Shown here in pieces: positions 3,297-42,557 of a stretch of 44,832 nucleotides of DNA (positions are counted from its first letter, which is position 1; each line of letters opens with the position of its first letter). Position numbers and translations under genes: made by a program. A model generated the notes under the pieces. The model searched no databases, was not told where the DNA came from, and saw only the letters and a list, made by a program, of their open reading frames with translations. This DNA is from a phage: sequence record PX055572.1; one strand, written 5' to 3'.

Positions 3297-3322
3297 AGGC
3301 CCCGCTAGGGGCCTTAGTTTTA
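3297..3322. terminator. Bidirectional intrinsic terminator (portal / KilA-N convergent)
   Basis: AGGCCCC-gcta-GGGGCCT flanked by T-rich on + and - strands. Confidence 0.6.
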
Positions 3323-3973
3323 ACGTATATTAGCCGCACATTTACGCACAACCCGAGGTATCGCCTCTTTCAGTTCACCCCATGTATTAACGGCCTCCAT
3401 GTCAAGAAGCGTCACCAGAGCTTTCTGGATGTCACTTCGCAACTGATTGGTCTTCGCATCCTGAGAGTCCCATGTATCGAAACCCGTTACGTCGCGGATA
3501 TCTACGGATTCCTTTACCGCTTTAGCCACCTGTATGAAGTGTCCACTGTGGCCAATTCTTCCCTCCGTGCGCTCGATCATTCGACTAACGGCAGCGTTAA
3601 GCTCGACAAAGCTCACCGCGCCAATGTTTCGTAGTTCTACCTGCCGTTGTGTGATAAAGCGGTCGATAACGAGGAAATGGAAATAGGCGCTGTATTGCTC
3701 AGCAATATATACTGCCAGATGGAGACATGCAAAGGTGCGACCGTTTCGGCCTTTCGTCGCCCTTATGGCATTCTCGATTCCGAGTTGTTTTTCGCATTCC
3801 TCCTTGAAAATCTTGAAGCCATCCGTTGCCATGACCTGGCGAAGCTCTCTGGTCCCCATGCCGTTGTCTAAACGCCAACGGTTCATCTGGTCAACCAGCT
3901 CGTTTACGTTAATAAAGTTTTCACGGTCAAAAGTGATTTCTCCATAAGGGAACTCTAATGTTTGCAGTTTCAT
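3320..3973 (-). CDS. KilA-N domain protein (moron-like insert in head module)
   Basis: Reverse-strand 217-aa ORF between portal and head-morphogenesis genes; central segment GRTFACLHLAVYIAEQYSAYFHFLVI resembles KilA-N/APSES core (from memory); SD AGGAGA; own promoter with palindromic operator. Confidence 0.5.
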   Translation of the reverse strand: MKLQTLEFPYGEITFDRENFINVNELVDQMNRWRLDNGMGTRELRQVMATDGFKIFKEECEKQLGIENAIRATKGRNGRTFACLHLAVYIAEQYSAYFHFLVIDRFITQRQVELRNIGAVSFVELNAAVSRMIERTEGRIGHSGHFIQVAKAVKESVDIRDVTGFDTWDSQDAKTNQLRSDIQKALVTLLDMEAVNTWGELKEAIPRVVRKCAANIR

Positions 3974-4115: not shown

Positions 4116-5159
4116 ATGAGCTTACTGACATCACTAATCAGCCACCAGATTTGGCTGCAACGCACCGCATCTGGTGAAGTGAAAGACCTAGCACCGTTCA
4201 TTCAGGAGATGCGGGACGAAATAAAACGGCAGGTGCTGTTATTCGGTGACGACGGGCGAAGCACTGCCCGACTGAATAAATTGTTACGCGACCTCGAAGA
4301 AGCGCTAACTGGACTTACAGGTGACTGGCAAACAAAGCTGACAGAAGACCTTAAGGAACTGGCGGCGTATGAGGCTGAGTGGAACGTAAAGACACTGACC
4401 GCCAACGTAAACGCGGAATTTGTTACGCCTACCGCTGAACAGGTGTGGGCCGCCGCCGAGTTTCAACCCTTATCGTTGAGCGACAAGCCTGTTGACTTCA
4501 CTAAGCTGATGTCAGGTTGGGGTGAAGCGGAGGTGGCGCGCCTGGTCACCGGCGTTAAGATGGGCTTTGTTCAGGGCAAGACAACACGGCAGATTGTTAA
4601 GAATGTTGTTGGCGCTGGTGGACTAGCCGACATCTCAGAACGTAACGCGACTACGGTAATCCGCACCGCGCTGTCCCACGTATCCAACGAGGCCCGTAAC
4701 GAGACGTACCGCCAGAACGACGACATCATCGAGAAATATGAGTGGGTGTCAACTTTGGACAGCCGTACCAGCGCTATTTGCAGGGCCAGAGACGGAATGA
4801 CGTGGGAAATCGGTAAAGGGCCGACACCCCCAGCCCATCCGAATTGTCGGTCGTGCACGGCTCCGGTAATCAGTTCAGAGTTCGACTTCCTCGATAAAGG
4901 CGCAAAACGGGCGGCTAAGGGCGCTGACGGCGGCACTCAGGTAAGCGCGGACACAACATATTACGAGTTCCTGAAACAACAACCAGCATGGTTTCAGGAC
5001 CAGGCGCTCGGTCCTGTTCGTGGTAAGATTTTCCGTAACAGCGGTATATCGCCGGAAGAGTTTCGCGTAAAATCTGTAGATGGTTTCGGGAATCCGCTCA
5101 CGCTTAAGCAGATGGCGGAACTCGATAAACGTGTTGCTGATTATCTGAAAGGGGATTAA
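4116..5159 (+). CDS. Head morphogenesis / minor head protein (Mu gpF / SPP1 gp7-like)
   Basis: 347 aa, SD caggaggg; C-terminal HPNCRSC motif typical of Mu F-like head morphogenesis proteins (from memory); position after portal. Confidence 0.65.
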   Translation: MSLLTSLISHQIWLQRTASGEVKDLAPFIQEMRDEIKRQVLLFGDDGRSTARLNKLLRDLEEALTGLTGDWQTKLTEDLKELAAYEAEWNVKTLTANVNAEFVTPTAEQVWAAAEFQPLSLSDKPVDFTKLMSGWGEAEVARLVTGVKMGFVQGKTTRQIVKNVVGAGGLADISERNATTVIRTALSHVSNEARNETYRQNDDIIEKYEWVSTLDSRTSAICRARDGMTWEIGKGPTPPAHPNCRSCTAPVISSEFDFLDKGAKRAAKGADGGTQVSADTTYYEFLKQQPAWFQDQALGPVRGKIFRNSGISPEEFRVKSVDGFGNPLTLKQMAELDKRVADYLKGD

Positions 5160-5161
5160 CG

Positions 5162-5620
5162 ATGGGCTTTTTCAAAGTAACTGATGTACCGTCGCGCCGC
5201 GTAGTCCAGTACGCCCGAGTGTCTGGCTCTGGCGAGAACGTGGTGTTTATTGGAGATGAAAGTGTACTCGGTACACCAGTAGACGATATGCCGTTTGCGG
5301 ATAAGACTGGCATCGCACTTCCTGCGGCGGGCATGCTTTACGAGATTCCGTATCTGGCTGATGCTGGCGACGTGTATTTCTCTGCGCAACCGCAGGACGC
5401 TGAACTGGCGGGCGGCAGCGCAACCATCACTGTCGAGGTTAAGGCAGGCAAAGCGCCGTATTCTCTGACCTGGTACAAAGACGGTAAGGAAGTGGTGAAT
5501 GCGCCTGAGGAGGCTCTGTCTCTGACGGTTAATGCGGTCGGCGAATACTTCGTTAAAGTTACTGATGCCGATGGAGTAGAGGCGGTAAGCAAAGCGGCGA
5601 AGGTTACTAAGCCAGAATGA
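5162..5620 (+). CDS. Ig-like domain protein (putative capsid decoration)
   Basis: C-terminal ATITVEVKAGKAPYSLTWYKDG...GEYFVKVTD matches Ig-like fold pattern and is paralogous to ORF 8929..9270; followed by intrinsic terminator. Confidence 0.5.
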   Translation: MGFFKVTDVPSRRVVQYARVSGSGENVVFIGDESVLGTPVDDMPFADKTGIALPAAGMLYEIPYLADAGDVYFSAQPQDAELAGGSATITVEVKAGKAPYSLTWYKDGKEVVNAPEEALSLTVNAVGEYFVKVTDADGVEAVSKAAKVTKPE

Positions 5621-5623
5621 TAA

Positions 5624-5652
5624 AAAGCCCCGCTATGGGGCTTTATTTTTAT
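5624..5652 (+). terminator. Intrinsic terminator after Ig-like gene
   Basis: AAAGCCCC-gctat-GGGGCTTT then ATTTTTAT. Confidence 0.65.
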
Positions 5653-5716
5653 ATGAACATCGCGGTGATAGCCGCAGCCGATACCCACAAAACAAAATAA
5701 AACATCACACTATTTG

Positions 5717-6061
5717 TCATTTGCATTTCTCGTCGTATGTTTGTTGTAACTGCGACAGACGATTACCGGCTGTCATCTCGTCCATAGAAGGCCCAGCGCC
5801 TGTGTCCATAAAGAACAGCGGAACAATCAGGAATGCGCCTGTAACACCGAGTACAACGTTAGTACCTATTTGCTTATTAACACGGTGCGTAGCGTTGGCT
5901 TGAGCTTGTTTTGTCGTGGCGATTCTCGATAGTAACTGATTACATGTTGCCGTTGTATCCCCCGCCTGATAAACCTGTAAAGCTGGGTCTGGCAACGACC
6001 TTACGCAACCACTCAAACAAACGGCTACAACACCCGCTACTGCTAATTTAATATATTTCAT
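5717..6061 (-). CDS. Lipoprotein (candidate superinfection-exclusion / receptor-blocking)
   Basis: Signal peptide MKYIKLAVAGVVAVCLSGC with lipobox LSGC; reverse-strand insert in structural module; translationally coupled to upstream small peptide. Confidence 0.55.
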   Translation of the reverse strand: MKYIKLAVAGVVAVCLSGCVRSLPDPALQVYQAGDTTATCNQLLSRIATTKQAQANATHRVNKQIGTNVVLGVTGAFLIVPLFFMDTGAGPSMDEMTAGNRLSQLQQTYDEKCK

Positions 6062-6159
6062 AGTTCACCATTACCCGTGTCAATTTCACCAATACCACTA
6101 CAAGCCCAAAGAAACATCACCGCATCAACTGCAATTACTACTGAAATAACGACTAACAT
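6058..6159 (-). CDS. Small hydrophobic peptide (33 aa)
   Basis: MLVVISVVIAVDAVMFLWACSGIGEIDTGNGEL; strong SD GAGGAGG 6 nt upstream; stop overlaps lipoprotein start (ATGA); downstream of promoter G. Confidence 0.35.
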   Translation of the reverse strand: MLVVISVVIAVDAVMFLWACSGIGEIDTGNGEL

Positions 6160-6186
6160 GACGGCCTCCTCGTTTCGATGTAATGA

Positions 6187-6215
6187 ATAGTACCCTATTA
6201 TATTGGTGTGTGCAA
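6187..6215 (-). promoter_or_regulatory. Promoter G: TTGCAC-N17-TACTAT with AATAG-N4-CTATT palindrome
   Basis: As transcribed: TTGCAC ACACCAATATAATAGGG TACTAT; ~28 nt upstream of small peptide/lipoprotein operon. Confidence 0.55.
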
Positions 6216-6488
6216 ACTATTTATTTACGTATTCCAGTTATTCCACCGAATTGTAAATGTTGGAATAAACTATTCGAATAGTTGACTTTTCACTGAAAAT
6301 ATGCTAAGCTCCACCTGAGCTTGTGAAGTATGAACAAGCGACCGCGGCGCGGGCAGGTAACGGAGCGGGACGTAAGTCCTGAGTGTAGTTACGCTGACGC
6401 GTTCGGAAGGGCCATACTCTATTGCTTGTGTAAAAAGTAACTGGTTTACTGAGATTACGCCGTTTCTATGTTTAAATGATAAGGACTA

Positions 6489-6520
6489 GCGCCCCGCTTT
6501 ATGGCGGGGCTTTACTTATC
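6489..6520 (+). terminator. Hairpin terminator/attenuator immediately upstream of Rz
   Basis: GCCCCGC-tttatg-GCGGGGC followed by TTTACTTAT; ends 16 nt before Rz ATG. Confidence 0.45.
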
Positions 6521-6535
6521 GAGAAAGGGGGAAAC

Positions 6536-6922
6536 ATGAATCTTAAAGCAACCGTCGTAGCAGGAGCATGTTTCATCATCCTGGCTTACACACACGGCAT
6601 TTATCAGTACCGCAGCGGCTGGAGCGAAGGCCGGGCGAATCTCGTTTCGCAGCAACAGCAGAAAGTACAGGCTGAGTTAGCGAAGAAAACACAACGGCAG
6701 CAGCAGGACGAATCAAAGGCCGCCGCCGCTGACAACGAAGGCAAGACGAAATCAGAGGTGATTACCCGTGAAGTCGTTAAGTACATTAAAACGCCTGGTC
6801 GCAGCGTGTGCACTTTCGACGATGCTCGCGTCCTGCTCAAGTCCCACGCCGTCGCAAACGCTAATTCCATTACCGGATACGACGATGATGCAGCCTCCGT
6901 GCAAACTGGCAGCTCCAAGTAG
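6536..6922 (+). CDS. Rz: i-spanin (Rz-like)
   Basis: N-terminal TM helix ATVVAGACFIILAYTHGIY followed by Q/K/E-rich coiled-coil; SD aagggggaa; contains out-of-frame lipoprotein ORF (Rz1) at its 3' end. Confidence 0.6.
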   Translation: MNLKATVVAGACFIILAYTHGIYQYRSGWSEGRANLVSQQQQKVQAELAKKTQRQQQDESKAAAADNEGKTKSEVITREVVKYIKTPGRSVCTFDDARVLLKSHAVANANSITGYDDDAASVQTGSSK

Positions 6923-7031
6923 CGACGCTGACGAGGATTTAGCTATCGACGTTCAGAACGCCGAATGCGTGCGGCAACTGCGTCTGAAAGTATTCCAGTT
7001 GCAGGATTATGTGAGGAATATTCTGGAATAG
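6768..7031 (+). CDS. Rz1: o-spanin (Rz1-like outer-membrane lipoprotein), GTG start
   Basis: GTG start with SD AGAGG 7 nt upstream; signal peptide with lipobox LASC; Pro-rich mature N-terminus CSSPTPSQTLIPLP; overlaps 3' end of Rz in a different frame and extends 109 nt beyond. Confidence 0.6.
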   Translation: MKSLSTLKRLVAACALSTMLASCSSPTPSQTLIPLPDTTMMQPPCKLAAPSSDADEDLAIDVQNAECVRQLRLKVFQLQDYVRNILE

Positions 7032-7113
7032 TTGCCTTGCATGTTGGAATAATTTATTCTTGACATGTAAATCCGGGTGGCCCGGGTTCCAACGTCCAGG
7101 GGACATACTGACT

Positions 7114-7815
7114 ATGAATCGTTTTTTACGTTATCCGTTCCAGGAAGAAGCTGGGGCAGAAGATAAAGCTGGTGGCGGTGACGCGCCGAAAATGTTCACC
7201 GCTGAAGAAGTTCAGGCGCTGATTGAGAAAGAAGTTGCCGGGCTTAAGGCTAATCAGGAAGCATTGTTGGCGGAGAAGAAAGAAGCCGCTCGCAAAGCAA
7301 AAGAGGCCGAAGAAGAACGGCAGCGCGCGCACCAGGAGGCGTTAAAAGCCGCTGGTAAGATGGATGAGTTCGAAAAGACGATTCGTAGCCAGTATGACCC
7401 GGTGTTAGCCGAGAAAGACGGTCGCATCTCCAGAATGGCAGAGCGTATCCTCGGCAGCGAACGTAAAGCGGTGCTAGGCTCTTTCGCGGGTGACTTTATT
7501 ACCCCAGAAGCAGTGGACATTCTTGCGCCGTTCGTTAAGACTGAGTTCGAAGGCGATGATGTGGTTACTAAGTTTGTTGGTGCAGACGGTAACGTAATCA
7601 CGACTGACCCGGAACAGTTCCGCAAATACCTGCGCGAACACAAGGCGTTTTCGCATTTGATCAAAGCAAATGCAGCTTCCGGCGGCGGGGCTTCCGGTAG
7701 CAAAGGCGGCGGGGCCGCACCAGCGTTTAAAGACATGAGTGAAGCAGAGCGTTTAGCCCTGTATAAATCGAACCCTGCCGAATTTGAACGGCAACTTAAA
7801 GCCCTGAGGAAATAA
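7114..7815 (+). CDS. Scaffolding protein
   Basis: Ala/Glu/Lys-rich helical protein (EKKEAARKAKEAEEERQRAHQEALKAAG) immediately upstream of major capsid gene; first ATG in ORF. Confidence 0.6.
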   Translation: MNRFLRYPFQEEAGAEDKAGGGDAPKMFTAEEVQALIEKEVAGLKANQEALLAEKKEAARKAKEAEEERQRAHQEALKAAGKMDEFEKTIRSQYDPVLAEKDGRISRMAERILGSERKAVLGSFAGDFITPEAVDILAPFVKTEFEGDDVVTKFVGADGNVITTDPEQFRKYLREHKAFSHLIKANAASGGGASGSKGGGAAPAFKDMSEAERLALYKSNPAEFERQLKALRK

Positions 7816-7817
7816 TA

Positions 7818-8867
7818 ATGGCAATTACCACTATCGGCGATATCGTAACTGGCAACATCCCGGTCCTGGCGTCTTATATGACCGAGGACCCGGTAGAAAA
7901 AACCGCGTTCTTCCAGTCTGGTATTCTGACCCCGACCCCGTACGCTGCCGAGATTGCCCGCGGCCCGTCCAACGTCGCTAATATTCCGTTCTGGAAAGCG
8001 ATTGATACCTCTATCGAGCCTAACTACTCGAACGATGTATACCAGGACATCGCCACCCCGCGTAACGTGCAGACCGGTGAGATGATGGCCCGCGTTGCAT
8101 ACCTGAACGAAGGTTTCGGTCAGGCGGATTTGACTGTCGAACTGACCAGCCAGAACCCGCTGCAATCCGTAGCGTCCCGTCTGGATAACTTCTGGCAGCG
8201 CCAGGCACAACGCCGTCTGATTGCTACCGCGCTCGGTCTGTACAACGACAACGTAGCTGCTACCGATGCTTACCACGAGCAGAACGACATGGTTATCGAC
8301 GTGTCTGCTACTCTGGGCTTCGATGCGGGCGCGTTCATCGACGCTACCCAGACTATGGGTGATGCGCTGATGGGCAACGGCGGTGAAGTGCTAGGCGCTA
8401 TCGCGATGCATAGCTTCGTTTATGCGCAGGCCCGTAAGCAGCAGCTTATTGACTTCATCAAAGACGCTGACAACAACACCCTGTTCGCCACCTACCAGGG
8501 CTACCGCGTGATTGTTGACGACAGCATGACCGTAGTCGGCACTGGCCCGACCCGTAAGTTCATCTCCATCATCTTCGGCAACGGCGCTATCGGTTACGGT
8601 GAAGGTTCTCCGTCCAACCCGCTGGAATACGAGCGCGAAGCGTCTCGCGGTAACGGTGGTGGTGTAGAAACCCTGTGGACCCGTAAGACCTGGTTGCTGC
8701 ATCCGTTTGGCTACAGCTTCACCAGCGCGGTAATCACCGGTAACGGCACCGAGACTGTTGCACGCTCTGCTTCCTGGCAGGACCTGGCGAATGCCTCCAA
8801 CTGGAACCGTGTGGTTGAGCGCAAGCATGTGCCGATTGCCTTCCTGGTAACTGGTGTCGGGTCTTAA
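7818..8867 (+). CDS. Major capsid protein
   Basis: 349 aa directly after scaffold gene with SD GAGGAAA; followed by hairpin terminator; size and position. Confidence 0.7.
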   Translation: MAITTIGDIVTGNIPVLASYMTEDPVEKTAFFQSGILTPTPYAAEIARGPSNVANIPFWKAIDTSIEPNYSNDVYQDIATPRNVQTGEMMARVAYLNEGFGQADLTVELTSQNPLQSVASRLDNFWQRQAQRRLIATALGLYNDNVAATDAYHEQNDMVIDVSATLGFDAGAFIDATQTMGDALMGNGGEVLGAIAMHSFVYAQARKQQLIDFIKDADNNTLFATYQGYRVIVDDSMTVVGTGPTRKFISIIFGNGAIGYGEGSPSNPLEYEREASRGNGGGVETLWTRKTWLLHPFGYSFTSAVITGNGTETVARSASWQDLANASNWNRVVERKHVPIAFLVTGVGS

Positions 8868-11785: not shown

Positions 11786-12952
11786 ATGGCTACAACTCCT
11801 TTTAAGGGCGCGAATACCGCGCAATTCTATGTGGCGGAAACTACCCCGGGCGTAACACCGGCTAACCCGGTATGGTCGCCACTGCGTAACACAGGCGGCG
11901 TTCCTGCCATTACCCGTGACACGCTGACCTCCAACGAACTGGACGGCAGCCGCGAAACTACATCCATCCGCACCGGTAACAAGCAGGTTAGCGGTGAATA
12001 TGCTATTGAGCTTAGCTCGAAAAGCCAGGATGACTGGCTAGCCGGGGCTTTAGGCTCTACGTGGCAGGCTGGCGTATCTCTGTCAGGGCTATCGATTACC
12101 GTCGCACCGGCTGGCAAGACGTTCACACGTGCCACCGGCAGCTTTATCACTGACGGAGTTGGGGTAGGCGACCTGATTGCGTTTACCGATTTAACTGGCG
12201 ATAATGCAAAACCATTTATTGTTACTGCAGTAACGGCTACGGTTGTTACTGGTGCAGGCATCCAACACACCCTGACCACCGAGACAAAAACTAGTAAGGC
12301 TAAAACTGGCGACACGCTGGAAACCGGTAATACGTGTAAGACGTTCTCTATCCTTACCTGGTACAAAGGCCAGTGCGGCGGTACTTACGCGTACACGTTA
12401 ACCAAAGGCGTGGAAGTTTCTGGTTTTACCATCGAACAGGCTGTTAACGCGATGGTAACTGGCAGCTTCCCATTCATCGGTCGCAGTCAGGAGATTCTCA
12501 CCACGCCGCCGAGGGGTTCCAACTTCTCATCTGTTACTTTTGGTGATGAGCCGTTTTCTTCGGTTGACGTTTCCGTGTTCGATGGTTCTACGCCGTTGCG
12601 ATGCGACAGTCTGACTATCACCAACGATAACAGCGCGTCCGCGCAGTTCGAACTTGGTAACACTAACGTAGCGTTTGTTGAGCGTAGCCGCGCGGCTAAC
12701 ACTTTCTCCATCTCCGGCAAGCTGTACGACATGGCGATGATTCAGAAGTTTATCAACGAACAGCAGGTAGAGATTAACTCTATTCTGGCGGGGGTAAACG
12801 GGGCTATGTCTTTCAGTTTGAAACGCGCAGAGCTTACAGCAGTAACACCAGAGATTAGCGGACCAGAGTCAATCACTCAGTCCATTGAGGGGCAGGCCAC
12901 CGGCAACCAGTACCAGTCGTCTATCGTAATTCAACGTATCACCTACGCATAA
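11786..12952 (+). CDS. Major tail protein
   Basis: ATG 11786 with SD AAGAGG 8 nt upstream (ORF track starts at GTG 11780); 389 aa Thr/Gly/Ser-rich beta-type protein; followed by strong bidirectional terminator. Confidence 0.55.
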   Translation: MATTPFKGANTAQFYVAETTPGVTPANPVWSPLRNTGGVPAITRDTLTSNELDGSRETTSIRTGNKQVSGEYAIELSSKSQDDWLAGALGSTWQAGVSLSGLSITVAPAGKTFTRATGSFITDGVGVGDLIAFTDLTGDNAKPFIVTAVTATVVTGAGIQHTLTTETKTSKAKTGDTLETGNTCKTFSILTWYKGQCGGTYAYTLTKGVEVSGFTIEQAVNAMVTGSFPFIGRSQEILTTPPRGSNFSSVTFGDEPFSSVDVSVFDGSTPLRCDSLTITNDNSASAQFELGNTNVAFVERSRAANTFSISGKLYDMAMIQKFINEQQVEINSILAGVNGAMSFSLKRAELTAVTPEISGPESITQSIEGQATGNQYQSSIVIQRITYA

Positions 12953-12954
12953 AA

Positions 12955-12982
12955 CTAAGGCCCCTTTCGGGGCCTTTTTCTT
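12955..12982. terminator. Bidirectional terminator between major tail gene and reverse cassette
   Basis: AGGCCCC-tttc-GGGGCCT then TTTTCTT; A-rich on the other side. Confidence 0.65.
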
Positions 12983-23541: not shown

Positions 23542-25527
23542 ATGTCAAGCGGATGCGGTGACGTTTTAAGCCTGGCGGATTTACAAACCGCCAAGAAACA
23601 CCAAATTTTTGAAGCCGAGGTTATCACCGGTAAATCCGGCGGGGTTGCTGGTGGTGCCGATATTGATTACGCGACCAACCCTGTTACCGGGCAGACCCAG
23701 AAGACGCTTCCTGCTGTGTTGCGTGATGCCGGTTTTTCTCCCGTATCGTGGGACTTTTCCACCGGCGGTACGTTAACAGTTAATGACCGCGACAAAGTGG
23801 TGTATGACCCCGTAAGCAAGACGTGGTACTCATATGCGGGTACGTTGCCGGTTGTTGTTCCCGCGAGTTTTAATCCAGTCGGTAACGCTAACTGGAAGCC
23901 GCAGACAGACCCAAATTTGCGTAATGATTTGGCGTCAAGTACCGCCGGTTTAGGGGCTTCACTGGTGTCTTTTTCCAACGGTAACACCGTTGAAACATTA
24001 TCTGACGCGGAAGGTGCCAAGAACATAGGCAGTGGCGAAAGGAGTTTGCTTGCACGTAACAATGATATTAAGCATTCTGGCGACTTTTCTACCCTTCAAG
24101 CCGCGGTAGATGCGTCGTTAACTAAAAACGACTTAATTGTTTCTCCGGGTGAGTATACAGAAGCAATCACTCTGGGTAGTAAGCAGATAAAAGGTGTAGG
24201 TGGTGCTGCAATATTAAAACCATCGGCAAACTATGCAAATACTGTACAGGTTAATTTATCCACCCCGCACTGGCAGTTTCGACACAGCGGTGGTTTTGCC
24301 GTAGATGGTACAGGTACAACTGGGGCCGCAGGTATTAGTTTTGACCCGTCAGACCAATATTCCGGACGTCATAATTTTAGTGATTTATACATCCACAACA
24401 TCAACAAGGCCATTCAGAAGCCTTCCGGGAACATCGGTAATACATGGAGAAATATTGGGGTATCTACGTGTGATTGGGGGTATTACGCGATTAGTGGCTC
24501 AGAGATGCATTGCGGGGCCGATACCCTCTACAATATCCACTTCGACGGCATCTCCACCTATGCCGTCTACCTAAACGGCACTGTCGATAACGGTGGGATA
24601 GGCGGATGGTGGCTTAAAGACTCCATTATTGAGGCTTCCGGAGGCGGCGGGATATACTTAAAAAGCAAATCGGGTGACTGTCCTATATCTCCATGCGGGG
24701 TATCCAATGTATGGATGGAAGCTATTGCAACATCATCGGCTGTTCAGGTAGACGGCGTGGCGCAAAAACCGCGAGTTCTCAAGTTGGTAGACACCGCGAT
24801 ATTCTTTGCTGAGTATTCTTATCTCAATAGCATCGAGCTATCCAACTCCAACTTAGTAACTTATGGTTGCCGTTTTGACAACGCCGATGGTAATCAGGAT
24901 ATTGTAGTGGATGCACAAAGCACCATCGTAGCCCACGACGTGTATTTAAACGGCAGCTCTGGAAAGGACGTTATTGTAGAGTCTGTCGCGTCGCAATCCG
25001 CAACGGTAGCCACTACAAACTTGTCTCTACGAGGAAATTTAACAAGGGGACGAGTGTTTAATACGCCGACGGGGAATAAGTTAAAAGCTATCACATTTGA
25101 CTCAGGTAGCCATAATTTTTCTGGTAGCGGTACCGTTAACGGTTCGACTGTATCTGACGGACTTCACGCCGCTACATGTACCGAATTTTCATTCCCTGGG
25201 TCCGGTTTATATGAAATGGTAGCGTCAAGAACGACACTTACATCCGGCAGATGGTACGTGTGGGGCGTCAACTCTCGCCTCCAATCAGGAACAGCAGATG
25301 TGAGTATAACGTCAGGTATTACTATGGGTAGCGTTTATACTAAGTCTGGTGAGTGGATTAGCACATTTGGTGTGGGTAAAGCTTCCGCTAACGGTACTGT
25401 AGGTCTGTACATCTCTACTGGGGGAGGTTCAGGTGCTGTTATCAGATTTAGTGACTTCTTCATCGCTGAGTTTACGACGCAGGCTCAGGCTTTAGCTTTC
25501 GCTAACTCCCGAATGTCGTTGGCTTAA
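23542..25527 (+). CDS. Tail fibre / tailspike protein
   Basis: 661 aa, last gene of tail operon, SD AGAGGA; Gly/Ser/Thr/Asn-rich repetitive segments compatible with beta-helix; followed by terminator. Confidence 0.55.
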   Translation: MSSGCGDVLSLADLQTAKKHQIFEAEVITGKSGGVAGGADIDYATNPVTGQTQKTLPAVLRDAGFSPVSWDFSTGGTLTVNDRDKVVYDPVSKTWYSYAGTLPVVVPASFNPVGNANWKPQTDPNLRNDLASSTAGLGASLVSFSNGNTVETLSDAEGAKNIGSGERSLLARNNDIKHSGDFSTLQAAVDASLTKNDLIVSPGEYTEAITLGSKQIKGVGGAAILKPSANYANTVQVNLSTPHWQFRHSGGFAVDGTGTTGAAGISFDPSDQYSGRHNFSDLYIHNINKAIQKPSGNIGNTWRNIGVSTCDWGYYAISGSEMHCGADTLYNIHFDGISTYAVYLNGTVDNGGIGGWWLKDSIIEASGGGGIYLKSKSGDCPISPCGVSNVWMEAIATSSAVQVDGVAQKPRVLKLVDTAIFFAEYSYLNSIELSNSNLVTYGCRFDNADGNQDIVVDAQSTIVAHDVYLNGSSGKDVIVESVASQSATVATTNLSLRGNLTRGRVFNTPTGNKLKAITFDSGSHNFSGSGTVNGSTVSDGLHAATCTEFSFPGSGLYEMVASRTTLTSGRWYVWGVNSRLQSGTADVSITSGITMGSVYTKSGEWISTFGVGKASANGTVGLYISTGGGSGAVIRFSDFFIAEFTTQAQALAFANSRMSLA

Positions 25528-25529
25528 AA

Positions 25530-25557
25530 CTAAGGCCCCAAACGGGGCCTTTTCTCT
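25530..25557. terminator. Bidirectional terminator after tail fibre gene
   Basis: AGGCCCC-aaac-GGGGCCT then TTTTCTCT. Confidence 0.65.
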
Positions 25558-28766: not shown

Positions 28767-28796
28767 TTCTCAATTCCTTATATTGTTGGTGTAAGG

Positions 28797-29084
28797 CTAA
28801 CTATAATAGTTCGCTATTAGGGTGTCAACCTGTTTGAACGAACCAACTACAAAAACATTTGCACCACGCTTACGCATCCGCTCGTGCTCTCGTAACTGGT
28901 GCGGGTCAGGCTTCGTGCTTTCGTCTTTCTTCACCTCGACGAACCAGACGATGCCGCCAGGGAGAATTACCAGCAGGTCGGGAGCGCCGGAACGCCCCTC
29001 ATACACTATCTTACGAACGAGGCCACCAATGGCCTCGAATCGGTCTTTTGCGTATTTCTGTATTTTGCCCTCAGGCGTACTCAT
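28797..29084 (-). CDS. VRR-NUC domain nuclease
   Basis: PD-(D/E)xK-type core GAPDLLVILPGGIVWFVEVKK; ATG 29084 with SD GAGGGG (ORF track starts at upstream GTG). Confidence 0.6.
   Translation of the reverse strand: MSTPEGKIQKYAKDRFEAIGGLVRKIVYEGRSGAPDLLVILPGGIVWFVEVKKDESTKPDPHQLREHERMRKRGANVFVVGSFKQVDTLIANYYS
28800..28828 (-). promoter_or_regulatory. Promoter A: TTGACA-N17-TATAGT with palindrome in spacer
   Basis: As transcribed: TTGACA CCCTAATAGCGAACTAT TATAGT; between VRR-NUC gene and ORF 28575..28766. Confidence 0.6.
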
Positions 29085-32419: not shown

Positions 32420-32487
32420 CGTGATTTCTCGCTTTTCAGTTTATATTTCAAAGTTTACTCCGGGAAGCTGCCCGGCCAGTGATTAGA

Positions 32488-32516
32488 ACTATAATAGCTA
32501 ACTATTCAGGTGTCAA
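32488..32516 (-). promoter_or_regulatory. Promoter B: TTGACA-N17-TATAGT with palindrome in spacer
   Basis: As transcribed: TTGACA CCTGAATAGTTAGCTAT TATAGT; upstream of SSB-like gene. Confidence 0.6.
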
Positions 32517-35188: not shown

Positions 35189-35216
35189 ATCTGCCCCTCT
35201 CGTTTGGTATGGGCTA

Positions 35217-35245
35217 ACTATAATAGCGAACTATTCACATGTCAA
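35217..35245 (-). promoter_or_regulatory. Promoter C: TTGACA-N17-TATAGT with palindrome in spacer
   Basis: As transcribed: TTGACA TGTGAATAGTTCGCTAT TATAGT; in divergent region facing Cro-like gene. Confidence 0.6.
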
Positions 35246-41517: not shown

Positions 41518-41826
41518 TTGGATAAATTTACTGAAACAGTGACGGGGTGGCTTCTCGCTGCCGCACTGGTCGGTGGATTGGTCGGACTAAGGCAACATAA
41601 AAAGTCTATATCCGGGCCGATTGACGGACTGGTATTTCTTCTCACCGGCTTCGCGTGCGCCATTTTCGGCGCACCTCTTGCCGCTCAATGGTTTGGTATT
41701 ACTGGCGAGCGCGAGATAGCTGGCCTCGGATTCATCATTGCCATTCTCTGGATGCCTATCTATTCCCGCCTTTCTGGCATCGTATCGGGCGGCGATATTG
41801 CCCGCCCAGGAGGACCGCATGACTGA
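41518..41826 (+). CDS. Holin-like membrane protein (three predicted TM segments), TTG start
   Basis: Three hydrophobic segments; TTG start with SD GGAGG sequestered in a 9-bp stem; immediately upstream of second membrane protein and lysozyme. Confidence 0.45.
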   Translation: MDKFTETVTGWLLAAALVGGLVGLRQHKKSISGPIDGLVFLLTGFACAIFGAPLAAQWFGITGEREIAGLGFIIAILWMPIYSRLSGIVSGGDIARPGGPHD

Positions 41827-42091
41827 GCTATTCTGGTTTGTCGTAATGCTTTCAATGGGCGCTTCGTCCCTGTTCAACGTGTATAACGAACACGTGGACG
41901 ACGGGCTGTTCGGGCGTGTGCTTTATATTCTGACTGCTATTGTCTGCGCCGCCGGATGTATCCACCTGTTACAGGGCAGCATGTCACCGACGCTGCCTGA
42001 GACATTAATCACATTAGTTGCGCTGCGTCAGATTCGTCAGGCGTGGCTGTCGTACGGAGGACATAAGCGTGTCTCGAAACATTTCAGATAA
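41819..42091 (+). CDS. Two-TM membrane protein (holin/antiholin-like)
   Basis: ATG 41819 with SD AGGAGG; two hydrophobic helices; overlaps both neighbours. Confidence 0.45.
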   Translation: MTELFWFVVMLSMGASSLFNVYNEHVDDGLFGRVLYILTAIVCAAGCIHLLQGSMSPTLPETLITLVALRQIRQAWLSYGGHKRVSKHFR

Positions 42092-42557
42092 TGGCATCAA
42101 ATTCACCGCCGCGTTCGAGGGATTCCGCGGAACCGCGTATCGCGCTACACCGAACGAGAAGTACCTTACGATTGGGTATGGTCACTACGGGCCGGACGTT
42201 AAGGCGGGGCAGACCATCACACCGGGACAAGGACTCCTGTTACTTAATCGCGATATGGCTAAAGCCGTAGCTGCGGTTGATGCGGCAGCGCACCATTCAC
42301 TGACACAGGCACAGTTCGACGCTGTGTGTGACCTGGTCTACAACGCAGGCGCTGGCGTGATTGCCGCTACCACGGGCACAGGTAAGGCGCTGCGTTCTGG
42401 TGACATCGCGACGCTGCGGGCTAAGCTGACACTGTTCATCAACCAGAACGGCAAACCGATACTTGGACTGCGTCGTCGTACCGCCGGTCGTCTGGCGCTG
42501 TTCGACGGTAAACCGTGGCAGGAGGCTGAGGCTATCGGGCGCGCGGTGAAAGGTTGA
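42069..42557 (+). CDS. Endolysin, lysozyme-like
   Basis: N-terminal AAFEGFRGTAYRATPNEKYLTIGYGH resembles phage lysozyme catalytic region; GTG start with SD GGAGG 8 nt upstream (ORF track starts ATG 42018); followed by strong terminator. Confidence 0.65.
   Translation: MSRNISDNGIKFTAAFEGFRGTAYRATPNEKYLTIGYGHYGPDVKAGQTITPGQGLLLLNRDMAKAVAAVDAAAHHSLTQAQFDAVCDLVYNAGAGVIAATTGTGKALRSGDIATLRAKLTLFINQNGKPILGLRRRTAGRLALFDGKPWQEAEAIGRAVKG

Follow-up and report, generated by a model that had tools for sequence, protein, structure and literature searches.

On sequence grounds, positions 6536–7031 of the phage DNA analysed here (44,832 nucleotides; hereafter, the window) are the two-component spanin of a Kagunavirus, which belongs to the published 'Jersey' family of spanins; this family includes the pairs of Jersey, SETP3, SE2, K1G, K1H, K1ind1-3 and other phages (Kongari et al. 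2018, BMC Bioinformatics 19:326). The initial annotation had described an overlapped Rz/Rz1-type pair set apart from the holin and endolysin genes, and this description is borne out by PHROG matches, by the topology of the two proteins and by the published family. Earlier publications already cover this spanin family, the overlapped arrangement of its genes and their distance from the remaining lysis genes, and the finding is correct but ordinary. Taken as a whole, the explanation favoured here, that of a Jersey-family pair acting through a lambda-like mechanism and expressed late from its own promoter and leader, is very likely to hold.

The source genome is assigned to Kagunavirus (Guernseyvirinae) from its similarity to the Kagunavirus Escherichia phage VB_EcoS-Golestan, to which a 2.3-kb query (window 5600–7900) is 96.4% identical. 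The i-spanin proteins of the window phage and Golestan share 92% identity. The same region, with the scaffold and major head genes flanking it, was found in 482–491 Guernseyvirinae records.

The i-spanin and o-spanin proteins

The i-spanin (Rz-like) gene runs on the plus strand from an ATG at 6536 to the TAG ending at 6922 and encodes 128 amino acids, exactly as originally delimited. The product matches phrog_2536 ('Rz-like spanin', E 2.8e-53). It begins with an N-terminal transmembrane segment (approximately residues 5–23), followed by a long helix in the periplasm, a linker in which Cys92 lies, another helix and a C-terminus that varies. The transmembrane stretch, ATVVAGACFIILAYTHGIY (residues 5–23), directly follows Lys4 and has counterpart segments in all relatives. 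Its mean Kyte-Doolittle value, calculated by hand, is approximately 1.59, a borderline figure that falls just below the scan cut-off of 1.6. The protein is predicted to have a single N-terminal transmembrane segment of type II orientation (N-in/C-out). In the AlphaFold2 single-sequence model, which is of low confidence (mean pLDDT 61), residues 3–84 form a helix that includes the transmembrane stretch, residues 85–93 a linker and residues 94–107 a second helix. This helix-linker-helix arrangement agrees with the secondary structure given for the Jersey family by Kongari et al. (2018). Cys92 sits in the motif G[RK]xVC, which is present in 52 of 53 relatives.

The o-spanin (Rz1-like) gene extends from a GTG at 6768 to the TAG ending at 7031 on the same strand and encodes 87 amino acids. 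All coordinates of the earlier reading hold: the gene starts within Rz, is read in the other (+1) frame and continues for 109 nt beyond the Rz stop. Both PHROG profiles that it matches are labelled 'Rz-like spanin', namely phrog_1267 (residues 8–86, E 1.4e-17) and phrog_5672 (residues 41–87, E 6.4e-30). The N-terminus forms a lipoprotein signal, MKSLSTLKRLVAACALSTMLAS, preceding Cys23, with LAS/C23 as the lipobox. The lipobox cysteine is found in every relative for which the frame was identified, in the forms LASC, LSAC, LSGC, LNGC, ITGC, LTGC or LFGC. Under the rule of the E. coli Lol pathway, sorting to the outer membrane is associated with the absence of Asp at position +2. The +2 residue here is Ser (CSS...), and among relatives it is Ser, Asn, Arg, Gln, Ala or Pro, and never Asp. 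The mature protein is 65 amino acids long with seven prolines and comprises a proline-rich linker, with Cys45 and Cys67 conserved among relatives, and a C-terminal helix (residues 55–86) that is modelled by AlphaFold2 from the single sequence with pLDDT 83–94, the overall confidence of the model being low. The conserved periplasmic cysteines, Cys92 of Rz and Cys45 and Cys67 of Rz1, are likely to be joined in intermolecular disulfides of the kind usual in spanins.

Profile searches outside PHROG returned little. Neither protein had a significant match in NCBIfam or among PDB sequences. Against Pfam, Rz gave only sub-threshold similarity (DUF2514, E 0.007, 16.8 bits versus a cut-off of 26) and Rz1 gave no match; the pair thus had no significant match to any Pfam family, including those of the lambda-type Rz and Rz1 (Phage_lysis and Rz1).

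Promoter-like motif, leader and stem-loop upstream of Rz

Rz and Rz1 are probably the leading two cistrons of a late transcription unit. This unit would be driven by an extended -10 promoter-like element at 6282–6310 (plus strand), through a leader of approximately 220 nt ending in a stem-loop at 6478–6520. The element is of the sigma-70 type and consists of TTGACT, a 14-nt spacer, TGc and TAAGCT. In the form T.GA.T-N14-TGn-TAnnCT it lies 226–261 nt upstream of Rz in 51 of 52 loci, and it occurs once in the window when both strands are scanned. The palindrome AACTATTCGAATAGTT (6268–6283), which contains an ACTATTC half-site common to the phage's early-promoter motif, abuts the element on its upstream side, and TTATTCC/GGAATAA repeats are found at 6228–6267. 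Second copies of these upstream motifs, such as a put-like multi-site system might show, were not found elsewhere in the window.

The structured 5' leader of the putative spanin-scaffold-capsid transcription unit would span 6317–6535 on the plus strand. Four helices are 98.3% paired across 37 distinct sequences, with seven pairs changed on both sides, against 31–49% for slid controls, and the many G-U pairs point to a leader that acts as plus-strand RNA. An Rfam scan of 5500–7300 at E<=1 found nothing relevant. A 36-amino acid ORF within the leader (6330–6440) was rejected as a gene because an 11-nt deletion in Jerseyvirus removes its ATG while the RNA helices are kept. A tRNA-like leader was likewise discarded, as an ARAGORN search of the window and of eight loci gave no tRNA. 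In horsemountain, a 'tRNA-Ser' has been placed on the opposite strand, over the end of the Hoc-like gene; it is most likely a false call. The promoter, the transcription start and the roles proposed for leader and hairpin are deduced solely from conservation.

The stem-loop at the end of the leader (plus strand) has its core at 6491–6510 and finishes 15 nt before the Rz ATG, just 5' of the Shine-Dalgarno sequence of Rz (GGGGG, 6527–6531). The core stem contains eight pairs, seven of them G-C, and the extended stem has a predicted dG of -23 kcal/mol with z-scores between -3.3 and -4.3. Compensatory substitutions are found in both the upper and the lower stem across Kagunavirus, Jerseyvirus, Cornellvirus, phiEap-2 and TS33. 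The hairpin reported upstream of Rz in the initial annotation is, by these compensatory changes, real, but the label of terminator or attenuator attached to it is only one possibility.

According to that label, the core at 6491–6510 would be a working Rho-independent terminator or attenuator gating Rz/Rz1 and the head genes. In analogy to lambda pR'-6S RNA-tR', transcription of a short leader, or of the upstream operon, would stop there, and polymerase would pass only with the help of an antitermination factor. A consensus scan does score the hairpin as terminator-like, counting its eight pairs, seven G-C pairs and the tail TTTACTTATC, and its Golestan homologue is listed as predicted terminator T03 (by ARNold) in the supplement on that phage. 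Its location, with the conserved promoter-like motif approximately 200 nt upstream and a long late operon immediately following, and the co-varying helices of the structured leader are also in keeping with this idea. The tail TTTACTTATC, however, has only three consecutive U residues, is interrupted and is base-paired within the extended lower stem. The corresponding tail in Jerseyvirus is UUAGCGUAU, which is not U-rich, and Cornellvirus, phiEap-2 and TS33 have no U-run while retaining the extended stem; moreover, no Q-like antiterminator is named in the RefSeq annotation of Golestan. A working terminator at this site is possible, but we regard it as doubtful. Because other genera of the subfamily do not keep the U-tail, the comparative data are better explained by a conserved stem-loop in the 5'-UTR than by a canonical terminator; the structure at 6478–6520 may act as a weak terminator, serve as a site of processing or stabilise the mRNA.

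The arrangement recalls the lambda late region (pR', 6S RNA and tR'), in which a promoter, a leader of approximately 200 nt and a hairpin also precede the first genes of the late operon, those for lysis. This is an analogy only, as a Q-like gene is not annotated and the U-tail is not conserved. The promoter-like block and co-varying leader precede Rz in almost every relative examined and may be undescribed. A search of the literature on Guernseyvirinae promoters and terminators gave nothing useful. That the leader is a new cis-regulatory RNA, for example an antitermination leader of the put or 6S kind, or an element for RNase III processing or stability, is a more speculative proposal still, and on present evidence an unlikely one.

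Genomic position and proposed lysis function

Two overlapping holin-family genes (41518–41826 and 41819–42091, plus strand) match phrog_2359 (E 2.4e-32) and phrog_2508 (E 9.7e-34), respectively, and encode transmembrane segments. They are followed on the same strand by the endolysin, a phage lysozyme (42069–42557; PF00959, E 6.2e-27; phrog_7/33703), the ORF of which is open from 42018 and has its best Shine-Dalgarno sequence at GTG 42069. The PHROG and PF00959 matches confirm the original placement of holin-like genes and lysozyme at 41.5–42.6 kb (41518–42557). The distance of 35 kb between these genes and the spanins, in contrast, applies in linear numbering only. The end-to-start junction of the window is one contiguous stretch in Golestan, and headful packaging has been reported for this phage group. 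The genome map is circularly permuted, and the 35-kb distance stems from the point of linearisation; on the same strand, the endolysin stop therefore precedes Rz by approximately 8.8 kb. These 8.8 kb of the circular map hold small genes and the genes for terminase, portal, MuF and Hoc-like proteins. Terminal direct repeats that would fix the genome ends were looked for in the window, and there are none. The spanin genes are thus not adjacent to the holins and endolysin, and the phage does not have a canonical contiguous lysis cassette.

The immediate surroundings of the pair also differ in part from those first described, between the head-morphogenesis and scaffold genes. The next gene downstream is indeed that for head scaffolding (7114–7815, plus strand; phrog_206, E 2.6e-55; start as in the Golestan annotation), but the left neighbours are a Hoc-like decoration gene (5162–5620) and a moron, and not the Mu-F gene. 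The moron (5717–6159, minus strand) is an inserted accessory unit, flanked by the Hoc-like gene and the spanin leader, that encodes a 114-amino acid lipoprotein (5717–6061) and a 33-amino acid membrane peptide (6058–6159). It is missing from most relatives, is carried by only 11 phage records, all at least 99% identical, and is outside the spanin system. A bidirectional terminator-like hairpin at 5624–5644, listed as T02 in the Golestan supplement, closes both the upstream packaging and head genes on the plus strand and the minus-strand moron. The order MuF, Hoc-like, Rz/Rz1 and scaffold is found at 47 of 47 viral-contig loci and in phiEap-2, FSL SP-031, TS33 and horsemountain. The pair holds a fixed slot throughout the Guernseyvirinae, in the order Hoc-like gene, variable moron site, Rz/Rz1, scaffold and major capsid.

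The window was also scanned for a second or a unimolecular spanin near the endolysin. Besides Rz1, the lipobox scan gave the moron lipoprotein, the hydrophobic segment of which is internal rather than C-terminal, and a match lying within a transmembrane segment of a holin; neither was retained, and the window yielded no other plausible spanin candidate.

The closest counterparts of the pair are those within its own family. Kongari et al. (2018) place the pairs of the Kagunaviruses K1G, K1H and K1ind1-3 in the overlapped 'Jersey' i-spanin and o-spanin families, and report a 155-bp overlap in phage Jersey, constant o-spanin residues Cys45 and Cys67 and a nearly separated variant in FSL SP-031, each of which was reproduced here from the sequences. 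The window pair shares with the family the 155-bp overlap, the i-spanin of two helices and a linker, the o-spanin with a C-terminal helix and Cys45/Cys67; there is no difference of substance, and the window represents another Kagunavirus isolate. In Golestan, ORF7 and ORF8 have been called spanins, and a placement of the spanins away from holin and endolysin had been pointed out before in Escherichia phage Schulenberg, a Guernseyvirinae-like phage with Golestan as its closest relative.

Outside the family the resemblance is one of architecture. The prototype of the overlapped layout is the LysB/LysC pair of P2, the genes of which lie in a lysis cassette beside holin and endolysin. As in P2, the o-spanin gene of the window opens within the i-spanin gene, in the +1 frame, and continues beyond its stop, and the membrane topology is the same, but no sequence similarity was detected between the two pairs and the window spanins are not beside the holin and endolysin. 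The lambda Rz/Rz1 system combines a type II inner-membrane protein with an outer-membrane lipoprotein, has periplasmic cysteines and plays a part in the last step of lysis. The window pair follows the same two-protein logic. Rz1 of lambda, however, is fully embedded and has no predicted secondary structure, whereas the window genes are overlapped and the o-spanin has a confidently modelled C-terminal helix; the lambda spanin genes directly follow S and R, while those of the window stand apart from holin and endolysin. Judged from sequence and topology, the window pair is a functional analogue of lambda Rz/Rz1 in a different sequence family. In T4, the spanin genes PseT.3/PseT.2 are also unlinked from holin and endolysin. 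That pair has a separated architecture and all T4 lysis genes are scattered, whereas in the window phage the holins and endolysin form one cassette and only the spanins are displaced.

The spanin function proposed for the pair is argued from topology and from homology with an annotated family. The N-terminal transmembrane helix would fix the i-spanin to the inner membrane, and a mostly helical domain would extend into the periplasm. The o-spanin would be translated from GTG 6768, lipidated at Cys23, sorted to the outer membrane (Ser at +2) and brought into contact with the i-spanin through its conserved C-terminal helix. By analogy with lambda Rz/Rz1, the resulting periplasm-spanning complex would be kept inactive by the peptidoglycan mesh until holin and endolysin destroy the wall, whereupon it would disrupt or fuse the outer membrane and complete lysis. 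A position in the head module is tolerable, as spanins do no harm until the wall is gone, so that late expression suffices and co-regulation with the holin is unneeded.

The fixed slot between head decoration and scaffold genes across the subfamily could instead be taken to mean that the pair serves outside lysis, as a membrane factor for capsid assembly or DNA packaging or as a superinfection-exclusion pair, and our literature search on the Jersey spanin family found no experimental lysis data, whether from complementation, lipidation or lysis phenotype. However, the two proteins show all the topological features that mark i- and o-spanins, the genome, from a phage of a Gram-negative host, encodes holins and an endolysin yet offers no other plausible spanin candidate, and unlinked spanin genes have a precedent in T4. 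A non-lysis role is accordingly highly improbable, and a spanin function is preferred.

Start of the o-spanin and implications

The dual-coding overlap covers 155 nt (6768–6922, plus strand), in which the C-terminal 51 codons of Rz and the signal peptide and linker of Rz1 are superimposed. Within the overlap, variability among relatives tracks the Rz frame. The +1 frame is open in all 45 distinct relatives, down to 68% nucleotide identity, whereas the third frame contains 6–11 stops. Beyond the Rz stop, the variable sites fall mainly at Rz1 third codon positions (28/36, against 13/35 and 7/35). The codon at the position homologous to 6768 is GTG in 41 distinct sequences and ATG in four. A strong Shine-Dalgarno sequence, GAGGTGAT (6755–6762, plus strand), ends 5 nt before GTG 6768, its GAGG core ending 9 nt ahead of that codon, and is kept across relatives as GAGGTGAT, GAGGTAAT or GGAGGC.

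In the RefSeq entry for Golestan the o-spanin (gp08) begins at the second ATG (6888 in the window), giving a product of 47 amino acids that does not include the lipoprotein signal. The view that this short form, which also corresponds to the 47-position profile of phrog_5672, is the o-spanin and that the upstream GTG-initiated part is untranslated is scarcely tenable: a product devoid of signal peptide and lipobox could not get to the outer membrane, the 40 upstream codons are open in 45 of 45 relatives and encode the lipobox cysteine wherever the frame was identified, GTG and ATG alternate at 6768 behind a strong Shine-Dalgarno sequence, the phrog_1267 alignment (residues 8–86) covers the long form, and the long form with its 155-bp overlap is that adopted by Kongari et al. 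(2018). On this comparative evidence, GTG 6768 is the supported start and is better than that of the RefSeq Golestan annotation.

Correction of this start, truncated in RefSeq and in phrog_5672, helps the curation of several hundred Guernseyvirinae genomes that serve phage-therapy work. By itself the finding matters little; it confirms that a reading made without any tools is able to recover a correct overlapped pair, GTG start included. That lysis genes may be divided between a holin-endolysin cassette and spanins within the structural module has been documented before, both in this group and in T4, and it fits the accepted view that spanins require only late expression. Of the elements described, only the conserved structured leader might reward experimental work; were it a new cis-regulatory RNA, it would control when, or how strongly, the late spanin-scaffold-capsid transcription unit is expressed.

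Identity and dual coding of Rz and Rz1

Related phages were identified with a 2.3-kb query around Rz/Rz1, which matched 482 phage records, the majority Salmonella Jerseyvirus and Escherichia Kagunavirus. The nearest was Escherichia phage VB_EcoS-Golestan (Kagunavirus, Guernseyvirinae; 96.4% identity). The annotated records that matched best name these genes 'Rz-like spanin' (x2) or 'putative spanin', and the genes beside them 'Hoc-like head decoration', 'head scaffolding protein' and 'major head protein'. When the ORFs were re-read from the sequence, the gene coordinates of the initial annotation proved exact: on the plus strand, Rz runs from ATG 6536 to TAG 6922 (128-aa product) and Rz1 from GTG 6768 to TAG 7031 in the +1 frame (87-aa product). 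The two genes overlap by 155 nt, and Rz1 reaches 109 nt beyond the Rz stop.

ORF length has no evidential value here, as the window holds 117 ORFs of at least 80 aa, and the +1 frame was therefore tested by comparison with 47 related viral contigs and annotated relatives. All 45 distinct sequences compared keep this frame open, even at 68% nucleotide identity, and each has 6–11 stops in the third frame. At the homologous Rz1 start, 41 of the distinct sequences have GTG and 4 have ATG; the start follows a strong Shine-Dalgarno sequence, GAGGTGAT in the window, which is kept in relatives. Past the Rz stop, variable sites fall at 28/36 third codon positions of the Rz1 frame, versus 13/35 and 7/35 at the others. 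Taken together, these features bear out the proposed GTG start. In RefSeq Golestan (gp08, NC_042084) the o-spanin starts at the second ATG (window 6888), as in many Pharokka-style annotations, giving a 47-aa form with neither signal peptide nor lipobox, from which the PHROG family phrog_5672 was built. The start at GTG 6768 is better than the RefSeq annotation, and the conserved GTG/ATG codon, Shine-Dalgarno sequence and lipobox show that the 87-aa form is the real o-spanin gene.

In the PHROG search, Rz matched phrog_2536 'Rz-like spanin' over its full length (E 2.8e-53), and the 87-aa product matched phrog_1267 over residues 8–86 (E 1.4e-17) and phrog_5672 (47 positions) over residues 41–87. 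In Rz, Lys4 precedes a hydrophobic segment (residues 5–23; mean hydropathy about 1.59 by our own calculation, just below the scan cut-off of 1.6), after which two helices, the first of them long, are joined by a short linker that contains Cys92 (AF2, single sequence, pLDDT 61); the motif G[RK]xVC is present in 52/53 relatives. Rz1 opens with MKSLSTLKRLVAACALSTMLAS and the lipobox Cys, a classic lipoprotein signal whose +2 residue is Ser. The mature protein has seven prolines, Cys45 and Cys67, and its C-terminal helix 55–86 is predicted with confidence (AF2, pLDDT 83–94). All relatives in which the frame was identified retain Cys45 and Cys67 as well as the lipobox Cys. A lipobox scan of the window returned no second plausible spanin candidate; its other returns were the opposite-strand moron lipoprotein and a hit within a holin transmembrane segment. 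Neither Rz nor Rz1 had a significant Pfam, NCBIfam or PDB sequence match; the pair is analogous to lambda Rz/Rz1 in function but not homologous to it in sequence.

The overlapped 'Jersey' i-spanin and o-spanin families, of 27 members each, were defined by Kongari et al. 2018 (PMC6139136) and take in the Kagunaviruses K1G, K1H and K1ind1–3. That study described a 155-bp overlap, constant Cys at o-spanin positions 45 and 67, a conserved second o-spanin helix that probably contacts the i-spanin, and a nearly separated pair with an 8-bp overlap in FSL SP-031. Each point is independently reproduced here, including the Cornellvirus arrangement and a small-overlap variant. With the PHROG match and topology signals, this published family makes the original reading as a spanin pair essentially correct. 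In the Golestan paper, ORF7 and ORF8 appear as spanins and ORF66–68 as holins and endolysin. Published work already covers the spanin family, its overlapped architecture, its separation from the lysis cassette and the prediction of the hairpin.

Genomic position of the pair

The initial annotation placed the pair in the head module, about 35 kb from the holin-like genes and lysozyme. The holins (41518..41826 and 41819..42091) and lysozyme, or endolysin (42018/42069..42557; PF00959), were found at the position it gave (41.5–42.6 kb). The head-module site also holds, except that the immediate left neighbours of Rz are the Hoc-like decoration gene (5162..5620) and a two-gene moron inserted as an accessory unit on the minus strand (5717..6159), with the Mu-F-like head-morphogenesis gene (4116..5159) next to the left of the Hoc-like gene. 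The separation from holin and endolysin is real, but 35 kb reflects linear numbering only. The window opens at the small terminase gene and the Golestan record at the large one, and the last and first 600 nt of the window, when joined, form one co-linear 1,044-nt block within Golestan. Headful packaging has been predicted by PhageTerm for Schulenberg and a Jerseyvirus; Schulenberg is a Guernseyvirinae-like phage with Golestan as closest relative (genome announcement, PMC6763661), and for it the location of the spanin genes away from holin and endolysin had already been noted. The circular order is holin, holin, endolysin, about nine small genes, terS, terL, portal, MuF, Hoc-like, Rz/Rz1, scaffold and capsid, on the plus strand throughout except for two inserted minus-strand units, and the endolysin stop lies about 8.8 kb upstream of Rz.

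All 47 viral-contig loci, as well as phiEap-2, FSL SP-031, TS33 and horsemountain, have the arrangement MuF, Hoc-like, variable spacer, Rz/Rz1, scaffold. The spacer, which separates the Hoc-like gene from the Rz leader, is a hot spot for insertions (window 5645–6190; related loci L051 676–1530, L050 566–1551 and L053 510–1079). It lacks extra genes in minimal Kagunavirus and Jerseyvirus genomes, holds the lipoprotein moron in the window and 10 other records, a minus-strand PAPS reductase gene in FSL SP-031, and other, unrelated small genes in phiEap-2 and TS33.

The moron encodes a 114-aa lipoprotein (phrog_13472, unknown function; lipobox LSG-C, internal hydrophobic segment at residues 64–89) and a 33-aa membrane peptide. 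Its carriers are only 11 phage records, all at least 99% identical, and it could function in superinfection exclusion. The promoter-like motif preceding it (~6181–6200) is one of the phage's repeated early-promoter-type motifs and corresponds to the Golestan PHIRE motif 'Before ORF7, backward'. Another minus-strand gene (3320–3973, 217 aa), between the portal and MuF genes, is absent from Golestan. It matches phrog_6095 'amidase' (lysis; E 8e-121), a label that looks doubtful because the sole Pfam signal is a weak, below-cut-off match to the KilA-N domain (E 3e-4). In locus L037 (2501–3089; contig IMGVR_UViG_3300045988_013393), whose backbone is Kagunavirus-like with a 97% identical scaffold gene, Rz has 118 aa and is paired with an o-spanin with a different signal peptide (ITG-C), overlapping by only 8–14 nt like that of Cornellvirus FSL SP-031, which looks like mosaic exchange within the spanin locus.

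Sequences upstream of Rz

The ~340 nt from the Hoc-like terminator to Rz are conserved in every lineage. They include TTATTCC/GGAATAA repeats, the palindrome AACTATTCGAATAGTT (6268–6283) and a promoter-like motif, T.GA.T-N14-TGn-TAnnCT (TTGACT...TGcTAAGCT at 6282–6310), which lies 226–261 nt upstream of Rz in 51/52 loci and occurs once in the window when both strands are scanned. Across 37 distinct sequences, the GC-rich leader that follows (~6317–6535, ~220 nt) accommodates four helices with 98.3% of cells paired and seven pairs changed on both sides, against 31–49% and 0–3 in slid controls. Frequent G-U pairs point to a plus-strand RNA. Neither the promoter-like block nor the leader has a second copy in the window. 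The leader had no Rfam match, and its conservation is not protein-coding, since a 36-aa ORF within it has lost its start in Jerseyvirus.

The hairpin immediately before Rz, initially read as a terminator or attenuator, does exist. Its core stem (6491–6510) has eight pairs, seven of them G-C, and the extended stem (6478–6520) has a fold energy of -23 kcal/mol (z about -4). The upper stem is GCCCCGC/GCGGGGC in Kagunavirus, with a C-G to U-A change in locus L016; GCCCGGC/GCCGGGC in Jerseyvirus, with GCCCGAC/GUCGGGC in L044; GGGGU/ACCCC in Cornellvirus; and AGGGA/UCCCU in phiEap-2 and TS33. The lower stem co-varies too (GAUAAG/CUUAUC, UAUACG/CGUAUA, GUAAUGGUG/CACUGUUAC), and this cross-lineage comparison shows a structure evidently under selection. 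The Golestan homologue had already been predicted by ARNold as terminator T03. The 3' tail in the window, however, is only UUUACUUAU and pairs into the lower stem; Jerseyvirus has UUAGCGUAU there, and the Cornellvirus group lacks a U-run. The short, base-paired tail and the U-run not kept elsewhere favour a conserved 5'-UTR stem-loop, acting in processing, stability or weak pausing, over a canonical terminator, although in Kagunavirus the hairpin may be a leaky attenuator.

Several other elements were observed. Near-identical G+C-rich hairpins at 12947–12978 and 25522–25553 (GGCCCCnnnnGGGGCC between A- and T-runs) sit at the two gene-orientation switch points and are probably bidirectional terminators. 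Between the Rz1 stop and the scaffold start (7060–7092), a TTGACA hexamer precedes the hairpin CCGGGTGGCCCGG. The 'tRNA-Ser' annotated on the minus strand of horsemountain (NC_073171; L052 1435–1512), over the Hoc-like gene end and its terminator, is probably a false positive; an ARAGORN scan of the homologous stretches in the window and eight related loci other than L052 yielded no tRNA. Minus-strand-read repeats at 28795–28828, 32483–32516 and 35212–35245 (weaker at 1822–1855) have the form TTGACA-17-TATAGT with an embedded palindrome AACTATnATAGTT; they correspond to PHIRE motifs reported for Golestan and are probably early promoters with an operator. An ACTATTC half-site is common to these repeats and the palindrome at 6268–6283 beside the Rz-leader promoter, which hints at one regulator for both.

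Proposed mode of action

By the lambda/T4 paradigm, Rz and Rz1 would form a periplasm-spanning complex, restrained by peptidoglycan, that would disrupt the outer membrane once holin and endolysin had acted. Before that the spanins would be inert; late expression would suffice, so a position in the head module would be tolerated. Conservation of the upstream elements suggests that a late transcription unit with a promoter of its own and a cis-acting leader has Rz/Rz1 as its first cistrons. The promoter-like block and leader may together constitute a cis-regulatory leader, not described before, that serves the late spanin-scaffold-capsid unit.
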